Shown here: positions 1,187 to 21,680 of the stretch, in pieces | How positions within the stretch are numbered: position 1 is the first letter of the stretch | Layout: every line of letters begins with the position of its first letter | Source of the DNA: Psammoneis japonica | Taxonomy: Eukaryota | Direction: 5' to 3' | DNA: 27,309 nt | Assembly: GCA_008632985.1 (NCBI GenBank) | Contig: QPGO01000254.1 | Coordinates: 62,001 to 89,309, forward strand | Notes under the pieces: generated by a model | Told to the model about the DNA's origin: nothing | Database searches by the model: none | The model's input: only the letters and a program-made list of their open reading frames with translations | Made by a program: the position numbers and the translations under genes

Positions 1187-2224
1187 TCACGACTTTCCTG
1201 TTGAAACACATTCAAACGATCGAAACAAGCCAGCCGAGTAGGCTTCCTCTTGCACAATGCTCAGCCCGGGTGTCTCTTCAATCATATGCGTTACATCCTG
1301 ATTGTACACACAGCCCTTTCCACCAGCCGCTGCGGCAGTCTCGGCTGTCAAATCTTGGTACCAACCCAAGACCTTGTTGGAGGACTTTGTGTTTTCCAGC
1401 AAAAGCACTCGTCCTGTTTCAAGGTGGATAGAGTAGGTGATGCGATGAATTGAACATACAGAGTTGCTCCACGGCAGCATAGCAACATATCATTTCGCTT
1501 ACCGTTTTCGGGTTTGACGACTAGACTCATTTGCTGTAATGCAGCCTTGGCTCCTTGCGTCCCCATGACACAGAGCGAAAAGGTATCAACCACGGTATCA
1601 AACGAGGCTTGACCAAACAAGTCGACAAGGTCACGGGTTGCGTCCGCCTGGAGCACTTGAATGTCAACACGTTGCAAATTGTTCAATGTCTTGATTCGTT
1701 CCTTGGCTTGCTCTAGCATTCCTTGTGAAATATCCACCAAAGTCAAGGATTCAATATTGTTGTTGTTGTAATAGTCTAGATTTAATCCCGTCCCGACACC
1801 AATTTCCAAGACGCGACCCGTAGCTTTGGAAAACAAGCTTGCTCGTGCCTCGTTGATCCCCAAGGCAGACGCGGCGGTGCCGCCATCCAATTCATTGTAC
1901 GTATTGGCATAGGAATCGTACGCATCCGAAGCTTGCTCTGGCGACAATGCAATGGCAGACTTTATATTTGAGTGGCAACGCTCGCACATGCCAATCCAGT
2001 TGTCAAGAGACTTCGGCGGTTCAACTCAACTTCATGTGTCGGGTCGTGACTTTTTCAGCGATGTGTTTGATTGAATCATTTCTGGAGCTTTTCAGTCGAG
2101 TCGAAGCAACTTTTGGAACGTCTCGTGTATGCCTTGAGCCAACTACTTGTATCAATGCCTCTATCTGTGCACTTCTTCTGAAGCAACACACAAAACAAAG
2201 TAGCACGAAAAATTGTAACAACAT
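1187..2224 (-). CDS. Class I SAM-dependent methyltransferase (Methyltransf_11/25-like) with N-terminal targeting presequence; intron 1414-1502; two apparent 1-nt deletions (~2053, ~1965)
   Basis: Motif I VLEIGVGTG, then VDISQGML, QADA, FDTVVDTFSLC. A GTAAGC...AACAG intron joins KPENG to RVLLLE. Hydrophobic N-terminus MLLQFFVLLCFVCCF from ATG 2224. Confidence 0.85.
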
Positions 2225-7941: not shown

Positions 7942-10003
7942 TTACAAAACCAAAAGAGAAAAAATAGAGGCAAGGGCGGTGAGGAAAAAGTTGCCACATG
8001 GCTTGTGAGGAGACGACGCAGAGGTTGTCGCCCCTTCTTCCGTGAGGTTCACATTCGGCCCTTTCGTCGGCGCCAATTCTTGAGGGGCAGGTGAAGAAGC
8101 GACGATGCCGGAGGAGGGTTGGAAAGAGGGCGCCAATTCTTGAGGGGCAGGTGAAGCGATGATGCTGGAGGACGGTTGGAAAGAGGGCGCAAGCGAAGGT
8201 TGGAAAGAGGGCGCAAGCGAAGGACTGGCACTTCCGTCCGCGCAGAGTTCCACGATAGAAGCCGACCCCCCTTCTGCTGGAGCACCGGCAACAAGTAGGC
8301 CCCCTTCGACTGAAACGCTCTCCCCAAAATTTGCAAAGCTCTTATCATAAGGTATCATTCCAAGAAGTGCCCATGTATTCTCCGTGCGAGTGAAGACGTA
8401 GACTGCTCCGCTCCATGTGGCATTGGGGGTGCTATCGTCCTCTGGAGCCCCGACGGCAATGACGTCCTCGTCGATGGAAACGCTCAATGCATAGTTTTTC
8501 TTTCCTGCTACATCATCAAAGCCAAAAAACCTGGCTTGTTGTGTCCATACATCGCCCGTGCGTGTGAAAACAAAGGCAGAGCCGTTATTTGACTTTATGC
8601 CAGTACCGGCAACGATTGTGTCCCCATCGATATCCACGCTGCTGAATCCAAGAGTTTCACGGTTAGATTGCGCCGCATCTCTATCCAATAATTCAGCCTG
8701 CTGAGTCCAAGTGTTGTTGGATGAGCGGGTGAAAACATAGACCGAGCCGTATAAATCATTTGCACCGACAACAATCGTATTGCCGCTTATCGCCACACTC
8801 TCTCCGAACTCTTCTACTCTTGAAGCATTGACCGTGAGTTTATCTTGCTGGGTCCATGAATTTCCCTCGCGAACAAAGACATGGACCGCTCCTCTGAAGT
8901 CCCGGCGTGCTCCAACAACGACTGTGTCTCCTTCTATCGCACGCTGTTCCCGAAATCATCGCCTAGCTCCCCGATTACGAGTCTGGCCTGTTGTGTCCAA
9001 TTGTTTCCAGTGCGAGTAAAGACATAGACGGACCCATAATCTTCAAATGTCAAAACAGATCCGTCATCCGGACCAGGTATTCTAGCACCAACAACAATTG
9101 TGTCTCCGTCAATTGCCACAGAGCGTCCGAACCAAAATTCGGCATCCGCAATCCCATCCTCGGAGGGGCGGACCTTGGCCTGCAGGCCCACTCATCGTTT
9201 TCCGTGCGAACGTAAATGTAAGCCAATTCTCGAGCGCCAACGACAATGGTATCCTGATTGAGTGCCACGCTCAGCCCAAATTCGACAAATGTTTCATCTG
9301 GAAGTAACTCGATGGTAGGACAGTCCAGGGACGGGGCGGTCGGAGCCGACGGGGCTGACGTCGGCAAAGTCGTCGGCAGACTGGTTGTAAGATCCCCCGG
9401 CTCCCAGAGACATGAACTTGAATCGACCACCTCGGCAAGGAAGGAAATAATATCCTCGTTGGTACAAGTTCCAGAACAAGAAGAGACGCACAATGGATTT
9501 GAATTCGGAGGCGCTACCCGCGTTGTAATTGGTTCACAGTAGATCTTATCAAAGTCGGTTGTGCCATCAGGGCACACCAAGGCAATAAAGATTCCTTGTC
9601 CAATCGATTCGTTGGAAGGAACGGAACAGTTGAAGGATTCTGTGGGTGCTTGCAGACGCGCCCTGACAGCCAGTGCTGACAAGAGGTCCACAAGAGCATT
9701 CCTTGCGACACAGTCGACGAGCACTCTACCGGTGCCTGAACACGTCCACGACGAACCTTGCTGTACGCAATCGGTGCCTTTCGAGTCCAAAAAGACTAGT
9801 TCTGCACCACATGATATGGTAATAGATGGAACAAGAGCCGGGCAACCACTGCTAGCCGACGCTCCAAAATCCAGAAGGTATCTTCGGAAGGGAAACTCCC
9901 GCTGTACAGGCGCCTGTAATAAGTGTCGCTGGAAGTCTAGGCCGGCGCCGTTCTGGATGATGAACGCAGCAACAACATGCAGTAGACGACTTGCAATCAG
10001 CAT
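7942..10003 (-). CDS. FG-GAP-repeat 7-bladed beta-propeller surface protein (~687 aa after repairing 1-nt deletions at ~9186 and ~8940)
   Basis: Seven FG.SVAI.GDTIVVGA-type repeats across three joined frames; signal peptide; Cys-rich N-terminal domain; LAPSFQPS stalk repeats; hydrophobic C-tail. Confidence 0.87.
8069..8222 (-). repeat. Coding tandem repeats (60-bp and 24-bp periods) forming the LAPSFQPS stalk
   Basis: GGCGCCAATTCTTGAGGGGCAGGTGAAG occurs twice 60 bp apart; GGTTGGAAAGAGGGCGCAAGCGAAGG recurs at a 24-bp period. Confidence 0.85.
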
Positions 10004-10450
10004 ACGGTGACGACATAGAATACATAGGTGGGTTAAGTCCACTTCCTTTTGCTCTCTCAACTCTCAACCACACTGCACACTGAACGTAACGAGCACAAGC
10101 CACAGCTTTTTCGTTTCTTTATTACTTCAAAATTCTAATTTCAAGAATTGGGGTTCCTATATAGTATGTATTTATTCGATTGTGGATACATCTATAACGA
10201 TTGTTACAATCGTCTGTTTCCGTTGAATTTCAAAATTTTCTTTTTATTAAACAACTCACATACATGATCATACGCGGACCTCTAGCTACGAATTCAAAAA
10301 TGTGATTATGGACGTTGGCTGTTGATTGAGGGATGTTGTTTGACGCTCACACTTTTTCGACCGCTTCTTGTCACTGCCTTTGAAAGATTCAAACAGACTG
10401 TGTTTTTTGAATTGCTAAAGCTTTGGTCGTCCGATAAACAAAAAATCACC

Positions 10451-13400
10451 ATGAGTTTTGTCCTCCCGCTAGTAATGGCAGTCGTGGCACTGTTTGTCGC
10501 GTCCGCAGAAGGCAATCTACTAGGCATCGGTCAAGATTGTGTTGGTCATTCCCAATGTGAATCTGGTTTGTGTCTGAAAGGCGCTCGGAAGCTGGGAAGC
10601 TCTGGTACTTGTCAATGCAACGTTGTGACGAATGGTGGCTGTAACGATGGAAAAAACTGTACCAGTGTCCCTTCTGGAACACCGATTTGTACAGCGTGTG
10701 GCGATCCACAGGCACCCTGTATGGAGAATTGGAATCACTGTCGTGAAATGGAACTCAGTGGATGTTCTTCCATCATTGGGGATGACAAGTGCTCCGCTAG
10801 GCTTTGCTTGTGGGGACGTCGGAGACTCATTGACTCAATTGCTACTACCTATTGGAGCTCCGTGTAACTACGACGACTCTAGTTGTGAGACTGGGCGATG
10901 CTTTTTCAGCTGGACGACTCCAGTGCCGGAATGTTCCTGTGACGTGATAACGAATTTAGGATGCCCATCTGGTTCAGAATGTGCAATCAACATTGTGGAT
11001 GATGGACCTCCTTTCTGTGCCCTTCCGGATGGAACAGCCTGTGAAGAAGGGCTGCAGACAGACTGCTCGGTAAATAGCCCTACTTGCTGCAAATCTGGAA
11101 TTTGTTCCGGCGGTGTGTGTGTAGTAGCACCTCCGTCGCAACTTGGATACAGTTGTAGGGAAAACTCTGACTGCGATACGGGTTACTGCTATCACGGCGA
11201 AAAGCCTCCTTACACCGCTGGAACATGTCAGTGCAACCCGTCGAATGACGCTGGCTGTTCGGGGGATCTCAAGTGTAAATTCAGTACGATCATTGCAGAC
11301 CTTGCTCCGTTCTGTGGATATCCACTAGGCGCTACTTGTACAGTCAGTTCTGCGTTCGAGTGCGCTTCAGAAAACTGCTACAAGGGAACTTGTCACTGTA
11401 ATCCGAATTTCGTGAACACAGGATGCCTTTCAAGTCAAGAGTGCGTCGGCGATGAAACCGTTGGGTACCACTGCCAAGACCCTCCTACATTACCGGATCC
11501 TGATACTGACACCAGTCCACCTACGCTTGCTCCCGCGACCGACCCGTTACTGCCGATTGGTGCTCCGTGCGATTTCGACGACAGTGTCTGTAAAACAGGC
11601 AGATGCTTCTCCGGATATACGTCAGATTCGGTATGCTCGTGTGACGTGGAAACGAATGCGGGTTGTCCTTCTGATTTAGAATGCGCCATTAATATTATCG
11701 ATAGTGGTGGTCCTCCGCACTGTGTCATACCAGACGGTGAAGCTTGTGCAGAGGATCGGCAGGAGGATTGCTTGACAGGTACTTGTTGCAAATCAGGCGT
11801 ATGCTCCGGTGGCGTGTGCGTCGAGGCACCTCCATCCCCATTAGGATACAGTTGCAGGGAAAACTCAAACTGTGACACTGGATTTGTTATCACGGCTTCA
11901 AGCCTCCTTATACTGCTGGTTCGTGTCAGTGCAATCCGTCGACTGACGCTGGCTGCTCGGGAAATCTCGAGTGTACAGTTAGTACGGTTGTTGCAGACAT
12001 TGCTCCATTCTGTGGCTCTCCAATAGGTTCTGTTTGCACTGTCGGCTTTGATTTCCAATGTGCGTCAGAGAACTGCTTCAAGGGAATCTGTGAGTGTAAT
12101 CCGGATATGGAAAACACCGGTTGCCCTTTAAGTCAAGTTTGCGTCGTCGATGAAACCGTTGGGTACCAATGTCAAGACTCTCCTATATCACCGGCTCCTG
12201 ATGCTGACACCAGTCCACCTACGCTTGCTCCCGCGACCGACCCGTTACTGCCAATTGGTGCTCCGTGCGATTTCGACGACAGTGCTTGTGAAACAGGCAG
12301 ATGCTTCTCCGGATACACGTCAGATTCGGTATGCTCGTGCGACGTGGAAACAAATGCGGGTTGTCCCTCTGGCTTAGAATGTGCCATCAATATTGTCGAT
12401 AGCGATGGTCCTCCATTCTGTGTCATACCGGACGGGGAAGCTTGTGTGGAGGATCAGCAGACAGATTGCTTGGTAGATACTTGTTGTAAATCCGGCGTCT
12501 GCTCCGGTGGCGTGTGCGTCGAGGCGCCTCCATCCCCATTTGGATACAGTTGCAGGGACAACTCAGATTGTGACACTGGATTCTGCTATCACGGCTTTAA
12601 GCCTCCTTATACTGCTGGTTCGTGTCAGTGCAATCCGTCGACTGACGCTGGCTGCTCGGGAAATCTCGAGTGTACAGTTAGTACGGTTGTTGCAGACATT
12701 GCTCCATTCTGTGGCTCCCCAATTGGTTCTGCTTGTACTGTCGGCTTCTATTTTGAATGCGCGACAGAGAACTGCTACGCGGGAATCTGCGATTGTAATC
12801 CTAATTTGGAAAACACCGGTTGCCCTTCAAGTCAAGTTTGCGTCTCAGATGAAACCGTTGGGTACCAATGTCAAGACCCGCTTATATTACTACCGGCTCC
12901 TGATTTTAGCACCAGTCAATCGACTTCTGCTCCCGACCCTTCGACTACAACGCTGCTGCCCATTGGTGCTCCTTGCGATTTCGACGACAGTGCTTGTGAG
13001 ACAGGCAGATGCTTCTACGGATATACGTCACTAGAATCTGTATGCTCGTGCAACGTGGAAACGAATGGGGGGTGTGCGTCTAATTTGGAATGCGTCAGCA
13101 ACATTGCGGAAGACAGTGGCTCTCCATTTTGCGCCCTTCCTGATGGGGAAGTATGTGTAGCAGATCAGCAAACAGATTGCTCGTCAGGTACTTGTTGCAA
13201 ATCTGGTGTCTGTTCAGGTGGTGTATGCGTGCCAGCACCACCATTGCCATTTGGGTCAAGCTGTCGCGACAACACCAATTGCGATACGGGGTATTGTTAC
13301 CACGGCTACAAGCCTCCAGATACTCCTGGCTCGTGCCGGTGCAACCCGTCGACCGACGTTGGCTGCTCAGGCGACCTTAAGTGCACATTTAGCACCCTTT

Positions 13401-14631
13401 TATCGGATTTCGCTCCGTTCTGTGGTTCTCCAATTGGTTCGACTTGTAACACGGAGGCTGAGTTTGAATGCGCATCAGAGAATTGCTTTATGGGAACCTG
13501 TCAGTGTAATCCGAATTTCGTGAACACAGGATGCCTTTCAGGTCAAGTTTGCGTCGGCGTTGAAACCGTTGGATACCAATGCCAAGACCCACCTACATTA
13601 CCGGCTCCTGATGCTAACAACAGTCAGCCTACGCCTTCACCTGCACCTGACCCGTTGAATACTACATTGCTACTGCCCATTGGCGCTCCATGTGATTTCG
13701 ACGACAGTGTCTGTGAGACGGGCCGATGCTTCTCTGGATATACGTCAGAATCGGTTTGCTCGTGCGATGTGGGAACCAATGCAGGATGTCCTTCTGGTTC
13801 CGAATGTGTTATTAACGTTTCGGAATATGATGGTTCTCCATTCTGCGCCCTTCCGGATGGAACAGCATGTGTAGCAGATCAGCAAATAGATTGCTCTTCA
13901 GGTAATTGTTGCAAATCTGGCGTCTGCTCAGGTGGTGTATGCACGCCAGCACCACCGTCGCCCTTTGGGTCAAGCTGTCGAGACAGCACCGATTGCGATA
14001 CGGGGTATTGTTTCCACGGCTTCAAGCCTCCAGATACTCCTGGCTCGTGTCAATGCAACCCGTCGACCGATGCTGGCTGCTCAGACGATCTCAAGTGCAC
14101 ATTCAGCTCCTTATTCTTGGATTTTGCTCCATTCTGTGGTTATCAAATTGGTTCTACTTGTAGCACGGACGCTGAGTTTGAATGCGCATCCGAAATTGCT
14201 TCATGGGAACCTGTCAGTGTAATCCGAATTTCGTAAACACCGGATGCTTTTCAAATCAAGTTTGCGTCGGCGATGGAACCGCTGGGTACCAATGCCATGA
14301 CGTTGTTTCCCAACCAGCTCAGGAAGCTGGATCCATTTCACCTTCACAGGCTCCTGTTTTCATCTCGGAGGTACCTACACTATCAGTTGAATCAAACGTA
14401 CCTTCTGACATGCCTACAAAGGCTCAATCCAATGTACCTACAAGTGCACCTGTTTCGACATCCGTTGCACCTACACAAGTTGGTTCCAGTGCACCTTCAC
14501 CTTCGTCATTTTCTATCACAAAGACAGCGAACAATCTAGGTATTGATGACGAATCGGCAGCCCCGTCAAGTTCTACCATCTTGTTTGGATGCACTTTTTC
14601 CATTTGCTGTGCCATTTTCTTTCTAGCCTAA
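10451..14631 (+). CDS. Large secreted Cys-repeat protein 2 (~1393 aa after repairing frameshifts at ~10780-10793, ~11884 and ~14194); five 30-Cys units; Ser/Pro/Thr stalk; GPI-like tail
   Basis: Signal peptide MSFVLPLVMAVVALFVASAEG; sister units show exactly which base is missing at 11883-11885 and 14193-14195; tail ILFGCTFSICCAIFFLA. Confidence 0.87.
10842..14300 (+). repeat. Five intragenic tandem units of ~700-717 bp
   Basis: Units begin with LLPIGAPC at ~10842, 11547, 12245, 12953 and 13670. Confidence 0.92.
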
Positions 14632-14887: not shown

Positions 14888-16534
14888 CTAGGTGGCAATG
14901 CCCGGTGTCACACGCTCTTCTCGCGTACGTTCAATCCCAACAAACTTCAAAAGCACCTGTTCAATCCAAGGATTGGTGTCGCCCAATTTTAGTTTCAACA
15001 AAAAGTATTTTTCGAAAAGTACTTTGGATAGCCACGAGACAAATCCATTGTCGACCGTTACGTCAATCGATCGTGGTGATATTTGAGGAACCGTAAGAAA
15101 AATGGCGCCTTCGCCGCCACCAAAATCCGTTATACACAATCCATGCAAGGAGGGCTTACTCGTCAGTTTCACTTTACCCCGCTCTTCCTTTTTGTTTTTG
15201 GATTCTTCAATCAAGCGATCAATATTGTGAACAACGGCGGTACCCATGCTTTCAATCATGTATCTAGAAATGCAAAAGCAAGGAGTACATTGTGAGTGAA
15301 AAACGAGCAAACGACAGTATACGAAATGTGCACGGACAACACAAAACTACACATACCCAGTCTTTGGCACGCCAAGAGCTACGGGAGTATCGAATGACGG
15401 GAGTCTGGATAAGTGAACACACACTCCGACTGCAAAAATGTTATCAAAGGCTTTGGATTGCTGGTGATCATTCACCAACACCAGACCTTTTTCATCGGTC
15501 AGACCGGGAACGGACTTCCAAACGTCGTATCCACGAAAGGGTGGAATCAACATGGTCAATCGGCTAGTCAACTTGGCGTCCTTGATGACCTTGCCGGTTT
15601 TCTTGTGCAATTCTTGAACGTGAACACTGTCGGGTTCCACCTTTTTCACTCGAGAATTCGCCATGTACTCGACATTGTGCCGACCCAACGTTTCAATCAA
15701 GACATTACGAGAATTTCCAGCTCCATCCAAACCCAAATGACCAATGTACGGTTCGGGCGTGACAAAGGTCATGGGGCATTGATCGACCAAGGATTGCCCC
15801 CCGGCCTCCTTTAGGGCATTTTGTAACAAAAAGGCGTATTCATAGGCGGGTCCAAAACACGATGCACCCTGTGTCGCACCCACCACGACGGGTCCGGGTT
15901 GCGCAATCAATCGTTGCAACGCCGTGGCAGCGTCTTGGGCGTGGGGAGTGGTACAAACCGATTTTCCCGATTCCTTCATGCCAGTTATTTCTTCAAAGGC
16001 CAACCGTGGACCCGTGGCAATGACCAAGTAGTCATAATCGACAATCGTCGTTTGCTTGTTATTGTCAGTCAATGTCAATTGCTGTCGTTTCGGATCCAAC
16101 CTTTGTGCACGGCCATGCACAAACTCAATGCCGTGTTTGGGAAGAAGCTCTTGCAAATTTAGTTGAATATCCTTTGGTTCTCTCGTCTTGACGGCCACCC
16201 ACGGATTGCTCGGTGTAAAGCTGAAAATGTCTCGATCGGAAACGACAATCACCTCAACTTTGGTTCCAAGTTCGTTGCGCGCATCCAAGGCGGTGGACAA
16301 GCCACCCACGCCACCACCCACCACCACCAATCGTGGTCGTCGTCGTTTTTCAAATGAATCGTTTCTTGCCGACATTGACAAAGCGCTGTGCATCGGATTT
16401 TTCGGAACGATCCGTCTAGACACAAAGGGGCTTGTTGTTTTCAAAGAAACGGGTTGTGCCGAAAAGGCCGTAACGACGACTGGGCTTTCCTTGGAAATCG
16501 GAAGGAGTAGTGAACAAAGGAAGAAGAGATTCAT
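14888..16534 (-). CDS. sqr: Sulfide:quinone oxidoreductase, type I (SqrA-like), with putative bipartite plastid presequence; intron 15264-15356
   Basis: VVVGGGVGG, FTPSNPWV, LVIATGP, SVCTTPHA, GASCFGPAYE, EPYIGHLGL, VPKTG|YMIESM (joined across a GTATGT...TCTAG intron), LCITDFG, FEKYFL. Confidence 0.92.
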
Positions 16535-17007
16535 GTTGAGCTGTTTTTGAGAAAGGTAGTTTTGTTTGTGAGAACATGAACGAAGCTGATCGGCACGAGA
16601 GGGTTCGCATCAAAGGCCAAAAAATGAGGGACCGTGTCACGTTTTCGGAGAAAATGTGAGACCCTAATTTCTCCGTTTTATCCATTTCTTTAATTATGTC
16701 TAAAAGCTAATGTTTTTAGTCGTGATCGCTAGTCACGAATCAATCCATGACCAGCGAGAACCGATCGATCTTCGCGCGACTTTCAGACTGCGCCCGTTCA
16801 AAGTTCACACGTCCCTTTTTTCTCTTGCTTCAAAACAAACCAACAGCGACGGTGTTGCAGCAGCCGCAGCAACAACGAACAGCGTCACGTCTCATCAAGA
16901 ACAAAAAGCCGCCATAGGTTGACACAATTTCTCAGAGTCTACTGGTGACTGTCCTTGAGGAAATACCCTACAAAAAGTGTTAAGAGGAATTTTTATTGTG
17001 TCTTACC

Positions 17008-19140
17008 ATGAATTTGCAGCATCTCCCCGCTACCCTCCTCATTGTTGTTGCTCTCCTCTCAACAACAACAACAGTTTTTGCTCAAGAGCCCATTGGATCG
17101 GTATGTCGACAAGATTCTGATTGTGAAACGAGAGCTTGCTTTTTTGGTTTTGAAAACGAAGGAGTTTGTACCTGCAACACGGATACAAACCAAGGCTGCT
17201 CCAGTCCTGCGACTTGCAGTATTGACATTTCACAGCCAAGTCCGGCACTGCCTCCGTTCTGTGCCTTGCAAGAGGGACAGCCTTGTGATTTACAACAACA
17301 AGGATCCGATTGTTTCTTGACAGAACAATGTTGCAAGGGCAAATGTAGCACCGACGGAGGAATTTGTAAAGCATATATTCCTCGACCGATTGGAGAAACA
17401 TGCGGCATAGCTTCGGATTGTGATTCTAATTTTTGTTTTCGATCCATTCAACCTGCCGATACACCGGGACGTTGTCAATGCAATGTCAATACCAATGCGG
17501 GTTGTCCTCCCAATGAGAATCGCACGTGTCAATTTTTTGAATTCTTTGCCGATGGACCTCCGGCCTGTGCGCTTCCCATGGGTGCCGCGTGCAATGACAC
17601 AAGAGCGTTGGATTGTGACACGACGGTTTGTTGGAATGGGACCTGTCAGTGCAACATCAACTTGGTCAATTTGGGATGTACGGGTGATGACGTTTGTGTT
17701 GGTGACGAAGAGGTGGGGTATACCTGTAAGGATACGTCCGAACCGGTTGGTGAACTCTTGCCGATTGGAGCGGCTTGCCAAGAAAAGTCAGAATGCGTTA
17801 GCGACTTTTGCTTTGTTGGTTTTGGAGACGGCGGCGTGTGTACGTGCAACCCGCGGCTCAATACTGGATGCAATACTGGAACCGAGTGTGTTGTTGGTAT
17901 TTCCGAATCATCGTCAGCTGTCCCTCCCTATTGTGCTCTCCCAGATGGTGCTGCGTGTAGTGAACCGGCTGTAGATACCGAGTGCTTTCTTCAAGACGGT
18001 GGTTGTTGCCGAGGAAGTTGTTTGCAGGATGGAACCTGTGAAACAATCTCCAATTTACCGTTTGGATCTCCATGTCGCATTAATACAGACTGTGAAAGCA
18101 ATGTTTGCTTTTATGGCTTGATCCCTCCCGGCTCGCCGGGAAGCTGTCAATGCAATGTAGATACCAACGTTGGTTGTACGGGTGGTCGTACGTGTACATT
18201 TGTGGAGACTGTGATGGATGCACCAGCCTTTTGTGGATTACCTATTGGGGCAAGTTGTGATGCTGAAAATCCATTGGACTGCAGTTCAACTCAGTGCTTC
18301 AACGGAACATGCCAATGCCACAAGGACTTCAACGCCGGTTGTGCGGAAGGGCAGGTTTGTGTGGGTGATGAAAATACCGGGTATACCTGTAACGACGATA
18401 CGTCCGAGCCAGGAGAAGGCTCACCGATTGGATCAGTATGCAAACAAAACATGGATTGTTTAAGCGATAATTGCTTTTTTGGTTTTGGAGACGGCGGCGT
18501 TTGTTCGTGCAACACAAGGCTCAACACCGGATGCAATAGTGCGACCGAGTGTGTTGCTGGCATTTCTGAATCAAGGGCAACTGTGCCTCCCTATTGTGCT
18601 CTTCCGGACGGTGCTGCCTGTCAGCCACCTGCTCCAGATACCGAGTGTTTTCTTCAGGATGGCTGTTGCCGAGGAAGTTGTTTGCAGAACGGGACTTGCG
18701 AAACAGTTTCTGCTTTATTACCGGTCGGTTCAACATGTCGCGAAGATGCTGACTGTGAAAGCAATGCTTGCTTTTTTGGCTTGGTCCCTCCTGGTACACC
18801 AGGAAACTGCCAATGCAACCTGGACACCAACGATGGTTGCACCAGTGGCCGCACCTGTACTGTCTTGCAGTTTTTGCCAGACGCGCCTCCCTTTTGCGGC
18901 TTGCCGGTCGGGGCAACGTGCGATCCTGAAATTACCCTTGACTGTAGTACAACTCGGTGCTTCGAAGGCACATGCCAATGCCTTGAGGAATTCAACGCGG
19001 GGTGTAGTGAAGGACAAGTTTGTGTTGGAGACGAAAGCACGGGCTATTCATGCACCTCGACGTCCGCAACCGCCACTCTTCGTCCTACAAGCTATCTCCT
19101 GTTTCTATGTGTTTGTTTGGCAATGATAATAATTATGTAA
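17008..19140 (+). CDS. Secreted Cys-repeat protein 3 (710 aa, intact); three 30-Cys units; GPI-like or TM tail
   Basis: Signal peptide ending TVFA|QEP; units start at ~17089, 17761 and 18424; tail YLLFLCVCLAMIIIM. Confidence 0.9.
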   Translation: MNLQHLPATLLIVVALLSTTTTVFAQEPIGSVCRQDSDCETRACFFGFENEGVCTCNTDTNQGCSSPATCSIDISQPSPALPPFCALQEGQPCDLQQQGSDCFLTEQCCKGKCSTDGGICKAYIPRPIGETCGIASDCDSNFCFRSIQPADTPGRCQCNVNTNAGCPPNENRTCQFFEFFADGPPACALPMGAACNDTRALDCDTTVCWNGTCQCNINLVNLGCTGDDVCVGDEEVGYTCKDTSEPVGELLPIGAACQEKSECVSDFCFVGFGDGGVCTCNPRLNTGCNTGTECVVGISESSSAVPPYCALPDGAACSEPAVDTECFLQDGGCCRGSCLQDGTCETISNLPFGSPCRINTDCESNVCFYGLIPPGSPGSCQCNVDTNVGCTGGRTCTFVETVMDAPAFCGLPIGASCDAENPLDCSSTQCFNGTCQCHKDFNAGCAEGQVCVGDENTGYTCNDDTSEPGEGSPIGSVCKQNMDCLSDNCFFGFGDGGVCSCNTRLNTGCNSATECVAGISESRATVPPYCALPDGAACQPPAPDTECFLQDGCCRGSCLQNGTCETVSALLPVGSTCREDADCESNACFFGLVPPGTPGNCQCNLDTNDGCTSGRTCTVLQFLPDAPPFCGLPVGATCDPEITLDCSTTRCFEGTCQCLEEFNAGCSEGQVCVGDESTGYSCTSTSATATLRPTSYLLFLCVCLAMIIIM

Positions 19141-19575: not shown

Positions 19576-21680
19576 ATGACATCAACCGTGATGGGACGCG
19601 ATGAAAGCTTGAAGTGTCGATCGGGTGTGACACCCACGCGACGAAACGCTCTCCACCAGGCTGATTTGGAGTGGGCTTCACGCGGTGATGGTTGGTGGAG
19701 TCCGTTGTACCAGGCATTTGTCAATTTCATAATGTTGATCACCTTGATACCACTCAATGTGCTGATCCTTCTTCTCGCGGCCTGGCCACTAGTTTTGAGC
19801 TATCGCATGAAGGTAATGTCCCTTGATTCCATTCTTTACCTGATCTTGACGTATGTGTTTGCGCGGGTAGTGCTACTATACCTTCAGCCCGACGAGGATC
19901 CAAAGGACAGTGTTCCTCCAAAAGAGAAACTAACAGTTGCTGTGATCGGTGCGGGCCCAGGTACGTAATCGACTTCAACGCGTCACCTTCTACAACTCGC
20001 ATATCTCACTGGCACGTCTTCTGCTGCTACTTTTTGAAAGCTGGTTTGGTGACAGCCAAAGAGTTGATTGCCGAAGGTCATGTACCCGTGGTCTTTGAAC
20101 AGAGCTCTGCCATTGGCGGAGTCTGGCAGCGAACTGGAAAGCAGTGCGGCCGAGGACAAGCTCTTGCAAACACAATGACCTCAAGCTCAGCATTAAACAC
20201 GGCCTTTTCGGACTTTCCCATTCAAGCCGAGTATCCAGGACCAGATCCCTACTTTGCGAGTCAAGAAGCCTTCATGGACTATCTTTCAAGGTATGCCAAG
20301 TACTTTGGAGTTGATCAGTACGTCAAACTCAACACGAGTGTGAAGGAAGTTACAAAGATGAAGGACGGGCGATGGCAGATCAAGACGGTGCAGACAAGCA
20401 GCAAAGTCGAAAATGTGCAGGAGTTTGACAAAGTAGCTGTCTGCTCTGGGCAAACAGCTGTTCCAAGGATTATTAAGTTTGAGGGTCAGGATAATTTCAA
20501 AGGAAACATTATCCATTCGTCCGAGCTTTTTGATGAAGACGATTTTGAAAGGTTCAGAGACAAACGGGTCTTGGTGGTTGGAGGCGGGGAGACCGCGTCA
20601 GATGTTGTCTTGGATCTCTGTGACAAGGTAAACGTTTGTGACGTGTCACTCCGAAATCCGCTTCAAGTTCTACCGCGGAGCATGTGGGGACTTCCACCTG
20701 ACTATTACGAGACCCGTGTTCTCTATCAAGCACCTCGTTTTGCTCGCTGGGCAACCTACAAGCTCGTCATAGTGACCACCGCCTTCTTCAACAACGCGTT
20801 TGCTCGTCAGTATGGAGGCAAAATGCTTTGGGCTCCATCCATCTGGTGGAACCTACGGTTACTCTTCACCAAAAAATACATATCTGAATGCTTGACAGGT
20901 GTGAGAACGATTTGCTCATCGGTCCAAACCACCAAGAGCGACAACCTTGTCTTTGCGCTGAGTCAGAACAAAGAGAAGTGCAGCATTCGAAGTGGTGTCA
21001 AATGCATCAACAATGATGGAGCGGTTGTTCTGGATGACGGCAGCATACAGCAGTACGATGCCATTCTGCTAATGACGGGATATCAGCCGTCAAAGTTTCC
21101 ATTCCTTCCGAAAGCGCACATGACAAATAAGGTATGTGAACGGTATCTTGGAGTATTCCACCCGGATCTTCGAGACATGGCATTCATTGGCTTTATGCGA
21201 GGACAAGTGGGCTCCCTCATTATGGGTTTTGAAATGCAGGCACGCTGGTTTGCCTTGATATGTTCCAAGAAGAGAAACCTTATCAGTGAGGTAGAGATGC
21301 AAGCCCATATATGCGAGTCAGCGAGGACTCATTACTGTTACAACGCCACGTCAGGTGTCTGGTTTTATACAAACTATCTTGCTCGCCACTGCGTCGGCTG
21401 CGAGCCAAACTTCGTGAGGTTCTTCTTGCATGCTCCTGTGGCCTGTGTCAAGGCTTACTGCTCCCAATTTGCCGCATACCAGTTTCGAATGCGTGGCCCT
21501 CACTCCGACCCTCAGTCAGTGGTGGATGGTTATGCTCTTTCCGACGGTATCATCTACATGCTACCCGCCTGGCACTGTCTCGATCTCTTGTGGGTACTTC
21601 AGGGCTTTTGCTTTGAGGTCTGGGGTCTGATTCCGGGTCTAGCAGTGTATCTGGCACCGCTTTTGAGTCAATGGACCTGA
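19576..21680 (+). CDS. Flavin-containing monooxygenase (class B FMO, ~674 aa) with N-terminal membrane extension; intron 19961-20040
   Basis: VAVIGAGP|AGL across a GTACGT...GAAAG intron; GGVW; FMO signature FKGNIIHSSELF; NADPH site VVGGGETASD; TGY; EMQARW. Confidence 0.92.

Follow-up and report, generated by a model that had tools for sequence, protein, structure and literature searches.

A diatom nuclear gene for a type I sulfide:quinone reductase with a predicted plastid leader

A two-exon gene of the diatom Psammoneis japonica encodes a protein that sequence and predicted fold identify as a type I sulfide:quinone reductase (SQR). It lies on contig QPGO01000254.1 of assembly GCA_008632985.1, within positions 62,001 to 89,309 of the forward strand. 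We analysed this whole stretch of 27,309 nucleotides, called the window, and all coordinates below count from its first letter. Our reading is that the gene is nuclear, that its product carries a bipartite plastid leader, and that the enzyme would pass electrons from H2S to plastoquinone. We give this reading as a whole a probability of about 0.6. It follows up an earlier note on the same DNA, made from the letters alone.

Locus and gene structure

The SQR gene occupies the minus strand from 16534 to 14888, coordinates that match its ATG-to-stop span exactly. Removal of one 93-nt intron leaves a coding sequence of 1554 nt, with 517 codons and as many amino acids. Exon 2 supplies the C-terminal membrane/quinone domain, including the third cysteine. 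Equivalent residues in the list are those of the Acidithiobacillus ferrooxidans SQR, and conservation is counted over the 68 rows of the eukaryote-like clade described below. Model confidence is the predicted local distance difference test (pLDDT) of AlphaFold2 (AF2).

15357..16534, minus strand: exon 1, with the ATG at 16534; codons 1-392 and two bases of codon 393 (open reading frame and splice model)
16466..16534, minus strand: residues 1-23, signal-peptide-like, ending VVVTA (hydrophobic core; junction 23/24; pLDDT below 50)
16337..16465, minus strand: residues 24-66, Phe24 at +1 and then a transit-peptide-like region (composition; low pLDDT; solved SQRs align from residue 67)
15953..15955, minus strand: codon of Cys194 in SVCT, equivalent to Cys128; conserved in 68/68 clade rows
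15857..15859, minus strand: codon of Cys226 in GASCFGPAYE, equivalent to Cys160; conserved in 67/68 clade rows
15264..15356, minus strand: spliceosomal-type intron, 93 nt, GT..AG, phase 2, guanine-plus-cytosine (GC) content 0.40
14888..15263, minus strand: exon 2; last base of codon 393 and codons 394-517; stop codon 14890..14888
15134..15136, minus strand: codon of Cys436 in LCITDFG, equivalent to Cys356; conserved in 63/63 rows that cover the column

Splicing is what joins the two halves of the protein. The unspliced reading stops directly after ...PKTGYV, and ...YMIESM... and LCITDFG sit in a second open reading frame (ORF) in another frame; the conserved PKTGYMIES block exists only after splicing. 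The donor reads ACTGG/GTATGT (intron from 15356) and the acceptor TTTCTAG/A (exon 2 from 15263). Residues 67-392, from exon 1, align to residues 5-324 of A. ferrooxidans SQR (E 5.8e-78), and exon 2 takes up the alignment at residue 326 and carries it to 431 (E 1.2e-17). Because these exon alignments are collinear across the junction, its position is fixed, and we assign it by this comparison. All four motifs named in the earlier note (SVCT, GASCFGPAYE, LCITDFG and PKTGYMIESM) are present in the translation, the last of them formed by the splice.

The start codon is bounded on the upstream side. An in-frame stop lies 26 codons before the ATG with no ATG in between, so Met1 is the earliest possible start. 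The protein also has internal methionines at positions 48 and 54.

A type I enzyme by sequence and fold

Family models identify the fold of the protein, and comparison with solved structures identifies its type. Pfam found only Pyr_redox_2 (E 1.9e-20), a generic domain. No NCBIfam equivalog matched; the top model, for a type III selenoprotein, scored 78 bits where its cutoff is 525, and we rejected a type III identity on this score. The FAD-binding GxGxxG motif is VVVGGGVGG at residues 70-78, and Pfam, AF2 and Foldseek agree on a flavoprotein fold that binds two dinucleotides. The motif reads GGGxGG here and GAGxGG in the bacterial type I enzymes.

We compared the protein with solved structures by phmmer against the PDB. 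The type I SQRs of A. ferrooxidans (3sx6/3sz0, E 6e-78) and Aquifex aeolicus (3hyv, E 6.5e-70) came first. The type V SQR of Acidianus (3h8i) scored E 1e-26, human mitochondrial type II SQOR E 1e-8 at about 20% identity, and flavocytochrome c subunits E 5e-9 or weaker. Types I, V and II of these structures are assigned after the available text of PMC9666304. Residues 67-517 run collinear and unbroken with the solved type I enzymes at about 40-45% identity.

Predicted structure gave the same order. We modelled the exon-1 protein with AF2 from a 19-row alignment and compared the model by Foldseek. Residues 67-392 have pLDDT mostly above 90. The model superposes on A. ferrooxidans and Aquifex SQR with a root-mean-square deviation (rmsd) of 2.0-2.2 A over about 330 columns, on human SQOR with 3.3-3.5 A, and on the type V structure with 4.7 A. 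Foldseek, like phmmer, thus puts type I nearer than type II, type V or flavocytochrome c. On both measures we rejected type II (mitochondrial SQOR) and type V identities and, as the earlier note had claimed against type II, take the protein by sequence to be type I (SqrA-like). The trees described below held no named type III, IV or VI references.

Catalytic and quinone-site residues are retained. Beyond the three cysteines, the alignment pairs Ser192, His198, Glu232 and His266 with A. ferrooxidans Ser126, His132, Glu166 and His198. The Ser, Cys and His sites are named from PDB entry titles, which give the mutated residues, and Glu166 from its position in GPAYE. Within the clade, His198 is kept in 67/68 rows, and Glu232 and His266 in 68/68 each. 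The Phe of SKVLFEKYF aligns to Phe394 of A. ferrooxidans, whose role in the quinone site is given in the available text of PMC9666304. The position of A. ferrooxidans Phe357, after the third cysteine, holds an Ile; the same text reports an Ile there in Aquifex SQR as well. The C-terminal amphipathic region is also retained, as the exon 2 alignment indicates.

Clade-wide conservation of the catalytic residues points to purifying selection on catalysis and argues for its retention across the clade. Judged by these residues, the protein is very probably a functional SQR.

The eukaryote-like clade also shares a variable, charged insertion before the third cysteine. In the P. japonica protein it spans residues ~409-430 in exon 2 (roughly 15152-15217) and is 9 residues longer than in A. 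ferrooxidans SQR; several relatives are longer still.

A leader with a heterokont plastid pattern

A leader of 66 residues precedes the first residue alignable to bacterial SQRs. Its hydrophobic core covers residues 3-11, with a mean Kyte-Doolittle hydropathy of 2.92. A junction of a small and an aromatic residue, SKESPVVVTA/FSAQP, falls at residues 23/24. The 46 residues from 24 to 69, up to the VVVGGG motif, contain 10 K/R, 2 D/E and 22% S/T. AF2 gives residues 1-61 a pLDDT below 50, save for one short helix at 48-52. The earlier note had described an extension of ~60 residues with a hydrophobic segment, VTA/FSAQP and an S/T/R-rich region, and this description is borne out in each part.

This arrangement is the one expected of a heterokont plastid precursor. 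A small residue at -1 with F, W, Y or L at +1 reportedly marks heterokont plastid import (work attributed to Gruber et al. in 2007 and to the ASAFind paper of 2015), and periplastidial and secreted diatom proteins are said, in the same work of 2007 and 2015, to lack an aromatic at +1.

The pattern recurs across the family. The 68 clade rows fall into three sets: 53 with an initial Met and 30 or more residues ahead of the FAD motif, 10 with 0-16 residues there, and 5 fragments that lack the region. We scored the leaders by a crude hydropathy-plus-motif rule: a hydrophobic core, then [AGSC]/[FWY] within 16 residues. Forty-eight of the 53 complete leaders gave a match (F 38, W 9, Y 1); over 500 composition-preserving shuffles of these leaders the positives averaged 11.5 and never exceeded 20. 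The five non-matching leaders read G/L, T/F, P/W, A/L and G/L. Because it recurs so far above the shuffles, the leader pattern is not due to chance. The plastid-type presequence pattern proposed in the earlier note is shared by most full-length relatives as well, and the SQR likely carries a heterokont-type bipartite leader of the ASAFAP kind that would direct it to the plastid.

We also considered a lumen-targeting twin-arginine (Tat) signal at SRRIV (residues 39-43). We rejected it by eye, as no hydrophobic stretch follows the motif.

A diatom-wide family of separate lineage

Close relatives of the protein are long, and several carry diatom names. We searched 5.8 billion proteins; of 8000 candidates scored, 7991 matched, and the best 120 of these were examined. 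None comes near identity, which places the source species outside that protein collection. The top 67 matches share 44-60% identity with the P. japonica protein, and the complete-looking ones have 445-612 residues, longer than the bacterial enzymes. Those next below have 402-454 residues, most of them 424-441, at ~44-47% identity. Six of the long matches are named as diatoms: Amphora coffeiformis, a Nitzschia transcriptome, Cyclotella cf. meneghiniana, Cyclotella atomus, Nitzschia inconspicua and Epithemia clementina. The best diatom-named matches reach 48-56% identity. By these comparisons the gene belongs to a diatom-wide family and is no peculiarity of this alga.

Prokaryotic relatives are more distant. 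In the best 80 prokaryote loci, taken at one genome per species, 78 are proteobacterial by title, 2 have no taxon and 0 are cyanobacterial; identity is 39-47%. A metagenome scan found at least 80 loci at 39-45% identity, the same range as the bacterial loci. Cyanobacterial plasmid-borne homologues, type I-like themselves, share 32-39%. Matches in a protein atlas were confined to generic clusters of bacterial SQR and Pyr_redox_2.

Phylogenies separate the family from both bacterial groups. Our FastTree phylogeny had 205 rows; it left out two loci in which no ORF was found (L035, L080) and two with a wrong ORF or start (L027, L060), and was rooted on an outgroup of four distant plasmid homologues, not typed. 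It recovered three clades: one eukaryote-like with 68 rows (support 100), one proteobacterial with 129 (99) and one cyanobacterial with 4 (99). The eukaryote-like and proteobacterial clades join with support 30. A quick IQ-TREE run (LG+C20 PMSF, 48 rows) gave supports of 99 for the eukaryote-like, 96 for the proteobacterial and 91 for the cyanobacterial clade, and left the branching order among the three undecided. The outgroup branches are 4.9-10 changes per column long. With three clades and such long outgroup branches, no donor can be assigned; the trees favour neither proteobacterial transfer nor plastid/cyanobacterial descent. The family is a distinct lineage of type I SQR, apparently with a single origin.

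Plasmid loci of cyanobacteria and Rubrobacter (L081, L082, L084, L086) have SQR homologues that adjoin DUF2892/DUF302 genes and ArsR/SmtB regulators. Similar arsR-linked sqr operons are described in the available text of PMC5061849.

Relation to known SQRs

The P. japonica protein shares its core with the bacterial type I enzymes and differs from them in what surrounds that core. Like the SQRs of A. ferrooxidans (PDB 3T31, 3SX6) and Aquifex aeolicus (3HYV), it has the type I fold and the Ser/Cys/His/Cys/Glu/His/Cys set. It resembles A. ferrooxidans in its Phe394 equivalent and Aquifex in its Ile after the third cysteine. Unlike either, its gene is nuclear and intron-bearing and encodes a leader; unlike A. 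ferrooxidans SQR it also has the insertion before the third cysteine and falls in the separate eukaryote-like clade. Its presumed acceptor is plastoquinone, as against the ubiquinone or demethylmenaquinone of the A. ferrooxidans and Aquifex SQRs.

The closest functional model is cyanobacterial. Type I SQR of Geitlerinema sp. PCC 9228 (sqr1) and its relatives supports sulfide-driven anoxygenic photosynthesis by reducing plastoquinone, and in the available text of PMC5061849 cyanobacterial type I SQR is the only characterised SQR to do so in an oxygenic photosynthetic membrane. For this reason it serves as the functional model for a plastid SQR. The cyanobacterial homologues in our comparison are plasmid-borne (Geitlerinema sqr1 stood outside it), and the diatom family is not nested among them in either tree. 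The earlier note had drawn a parallel to the type I SQR of Oscillatoria limnetica. That parallel stands as a likeness of function, and gives way as one of descent.

Human SQOR (PDB 6OI5), a mitochondrial type II SQR, belongs to the same flavoprotein superfamily and carries out the same overall reaction, predicted in the case of the P. japonica protein. It differs in having a mitochondrial presequence and in using ubiquinone as its acceptor.

Genomic neighbourhood

The flanks of the SQR gene are of eukaryotic type. On either side lies a Cys-rich gene, and the two are paralogous (40% identity, E 8e-134; the comparison covers 12107-14631 and 16996-19140, without the ORF at 10632-12026). Both encode repeated modules of ~230 residues, and no Pfam family matched either protein. 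The gene at 16996-19140 opens with a signal-peptide-like MNLQHLPATLLIVVALLSTTTTVFA/Q and closes with a hydrophobic tail. The gene at 12107-14631 seems to run on into the ORF at 14182-14631, with a shift of frame that a short intron probably explains. Neighbouring features are as follows.

12107-14631, plus strand: Cys-rich gene
16996-19140, plus strand: Cys-rich gene, paralogous to the preceding
20034-21680, plus strand: ORF for an FMO-like flavin monooxygenase (Pfam FMO-like, E 4e-50)
7942-8796 and 9050-10060, minus strand: two FG-GAP-repeat ORFs, by domain content
1348-1989, minus strand: class I SAM methyltransferase ORF, by domain content

The best named relative of the FMO-like ORF is from Seminavis robusta, a diatom, at 48% identity. 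The ORF has 548 residues, compared with ~690 in relatives, and opens with TTG, so its upstream exons probably lie outside this reading. Several further ORFs of more than 200 residues in the window matched no Pfam family. The Seminavis match and the paralogous Cys-rich flanking genes identify the window as diatom nuclear DNA.

Discussion

The leader, fold and active site together suggest a route for sulfide electrons into the plastid. We infer plastid import, plastoquinone as the acceptor and the physiological role, in the following steps. The signal peptide would take the precursor co-translationally into the endoplasmic reticulum (ER), the outermost plastid membrane system, and be cleaved at VTA/F, before Phe24. 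Phe at +1, with the basic Ser/Thr-rich transit region, would then carry the protein over the inner plastid membranes to the stroma. There the mature protein, a monotopic flavoprotein that starts near residue 67, may bind the thylakoid or inner envelope through its C-terminal amphipathic helices. Cys226 and Cys436, with FAD, would oxidise H2S to sulfane sulfur and pass two electrons to plastoquinone.

Three roles could follow from such an activity, and the present data do not separate them. We rank first the removal of exogenous sulfide, which is toxic to photosystem II (PSII) and metalloenzymes. Second comes control of the sulfide and sulfane sulfur that arise from plastid sulfate assimilation. 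Third is a supply of electrons from sulfide to cytochrome b6f and photosystem I (PSI). In its strong form, this last role would make H2S a photosynthetic electron donor in diatoms with this SQR family, with electrons flowing from plastoquinone to cytochrome b6f and PSI without PSII. We regard that form as doubtful.

Several observations count against a plastid SQR. The region between the hydrophobic core and the cleavage junction (SKESPVVVTA) is long for a signal peptide c-region and carries K and E, and the leader rule itself is only a rough substitute for SignalP and ASAFind. Starts at Met48 or Met54 could yield a shortened protein that lacks the signal peptide. The ten near-leaderless clade rows (P0007, P0011, P0017, P0019, P0026, P0039, P0044, P0052, P0053, P0059) could result from truncation of gene calls or transcripts, or be true leaderless forms destined for another compartment. 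Proteobacterial type I SQRs face the periplasm, so an enzyme on the stromal face would have the opposite topology. No sulfur-metabolism partner, such as a persulfide dioxygenase or rhodanese, lies within the window. Finally, in 1 of the 68 clade rows, P0058 from Nitzschia inconspicua, Ser replaces Cys226; the copy may be inactive, or the Ser may stem from an error of sequencing or annotation.

The best surviving alternative moves a functional type I SQR out of the stroma. It could work in mitochondria, replacing or supplementing type II, in the ER or secretory path, or in the periplastidial compartment, or be dually targeted through Met48 or Met54, both of which stand ahead of a basic stretch. 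The ten rows without a leader would fit such a location, and eukaryotic SQRs described so far, in the available texts of PMC5061849 and PMC9666304, are mitochondrial. Three observations speak for the stroma instead. The strongly hydrophobic N-terminal core is unlike a mitochondrial presequence. The aromatic at +1, kept in 48 of 53 leaders and far above the shuffles, is the residue reported by Gruber et al. (2007, 2015) to separate stromal from periplastidial and secreted proteins. The secreted-looking neighbour at 16996 has A/Q at its apparent junction. We consider an extra-stromal SQR unlikely, though less so than sulfide-driven photosynthesis.

Loss of sulfide oxidation within a conserved fold is less probable again. 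The protein could be a neofunctionalised flavoprotein, for example one that acts on a different thiol or persulfide, or a quinone reductase. Its clade is long-branched and stands apart from the characterised enzymes, the variable insertion just before the third cysteine is specific to that clade, and no NCBIfam equivalog matches. All residues mutagenised in the A. ferrooxidans structures are nevertheless conserved in the P. japonica protein and nearly always across the 68 rows, and identity to the solved type I enzymes is ~40-45%. We hold this alternative to be very improbable.

Bacterial DNA, whether a contaminant or an assembly chimera with the extension as a chance upstream ORF, has in its favour that the nearest non-eukaryotic relatives are proteobacterial, but the intron and the flanks already rule it out: frame and collinear alignment require the GT..AG intron (the ground on which the earlier note, too, had dismissed contamination), the coding sequence has a GC content of 0.485 against 0.481 for the window, paralogous Cys-rich genes of eukaryotic type lie on both sides, the FMO-like ORF is nearest to Seminavis, and the best bacterial identities are 39-47% against 48-60% for unnamed eukaryote-like and named diatom proteins.

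A plastid-directed type I SQR would extend a familiar enzyme type to a new host, a new gene structure and probably a new compartment. Our literature search met no description of a diatom SQR of type I, nor of any eukaryotic SQR targeted to the plastid, though the distribution survey of Sousa et al. 2018 may list such sequences. Neither topic is mentioned in the available portions of PMC11736642, PMC8651085, 10.1101/2023.01.30.526236, PMC7490399, PMC11089139, PMC13384644, PMC11350084, PMC5061849 or PMC9666304. A 2024 review of plant sulfur states, in its available part, that no oxidative dissimilatory sulfur enzyme, SQR included, has been integrated into plants (PMC11350084), and a 2026 mat study, likewise in its available part, gives type II as the SQR form found in eukaryotes. 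Databases already carry these diatom SQR proteins under automatic names.

In eukaryotes, sulfide oxidation has so far been ascribed to mitochondrial type II enzymes. A conserved plastid-directed type I SQR across diatoms, if true, would open an entry for sulfide into the plastoquinone pool of major eukaryotic phototrophs. It would bear on diatom tolerance of sulfidic sediments, mats and oxygen-minimum settings, and on the redox poise of plastids and their chlororespiration in darkness or anoxia. It would also bear on whether anoxygenic-type electron flow exists beyond bacteria. Should these diatoms use H2S as a photosynthetic electron donor, the doubtful strong form of the third role, ATP synthesis and possibly CO2 fixation would run with PSII bypassed. 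This would be the first time that photosynthetic electron flow of the anoxygenic type, driven by sulfide, is seen in a eukaryote, and would give a mechanism by which benthic diatoms may persist at sulfidic, anoxic interfaces of sediments and mats.

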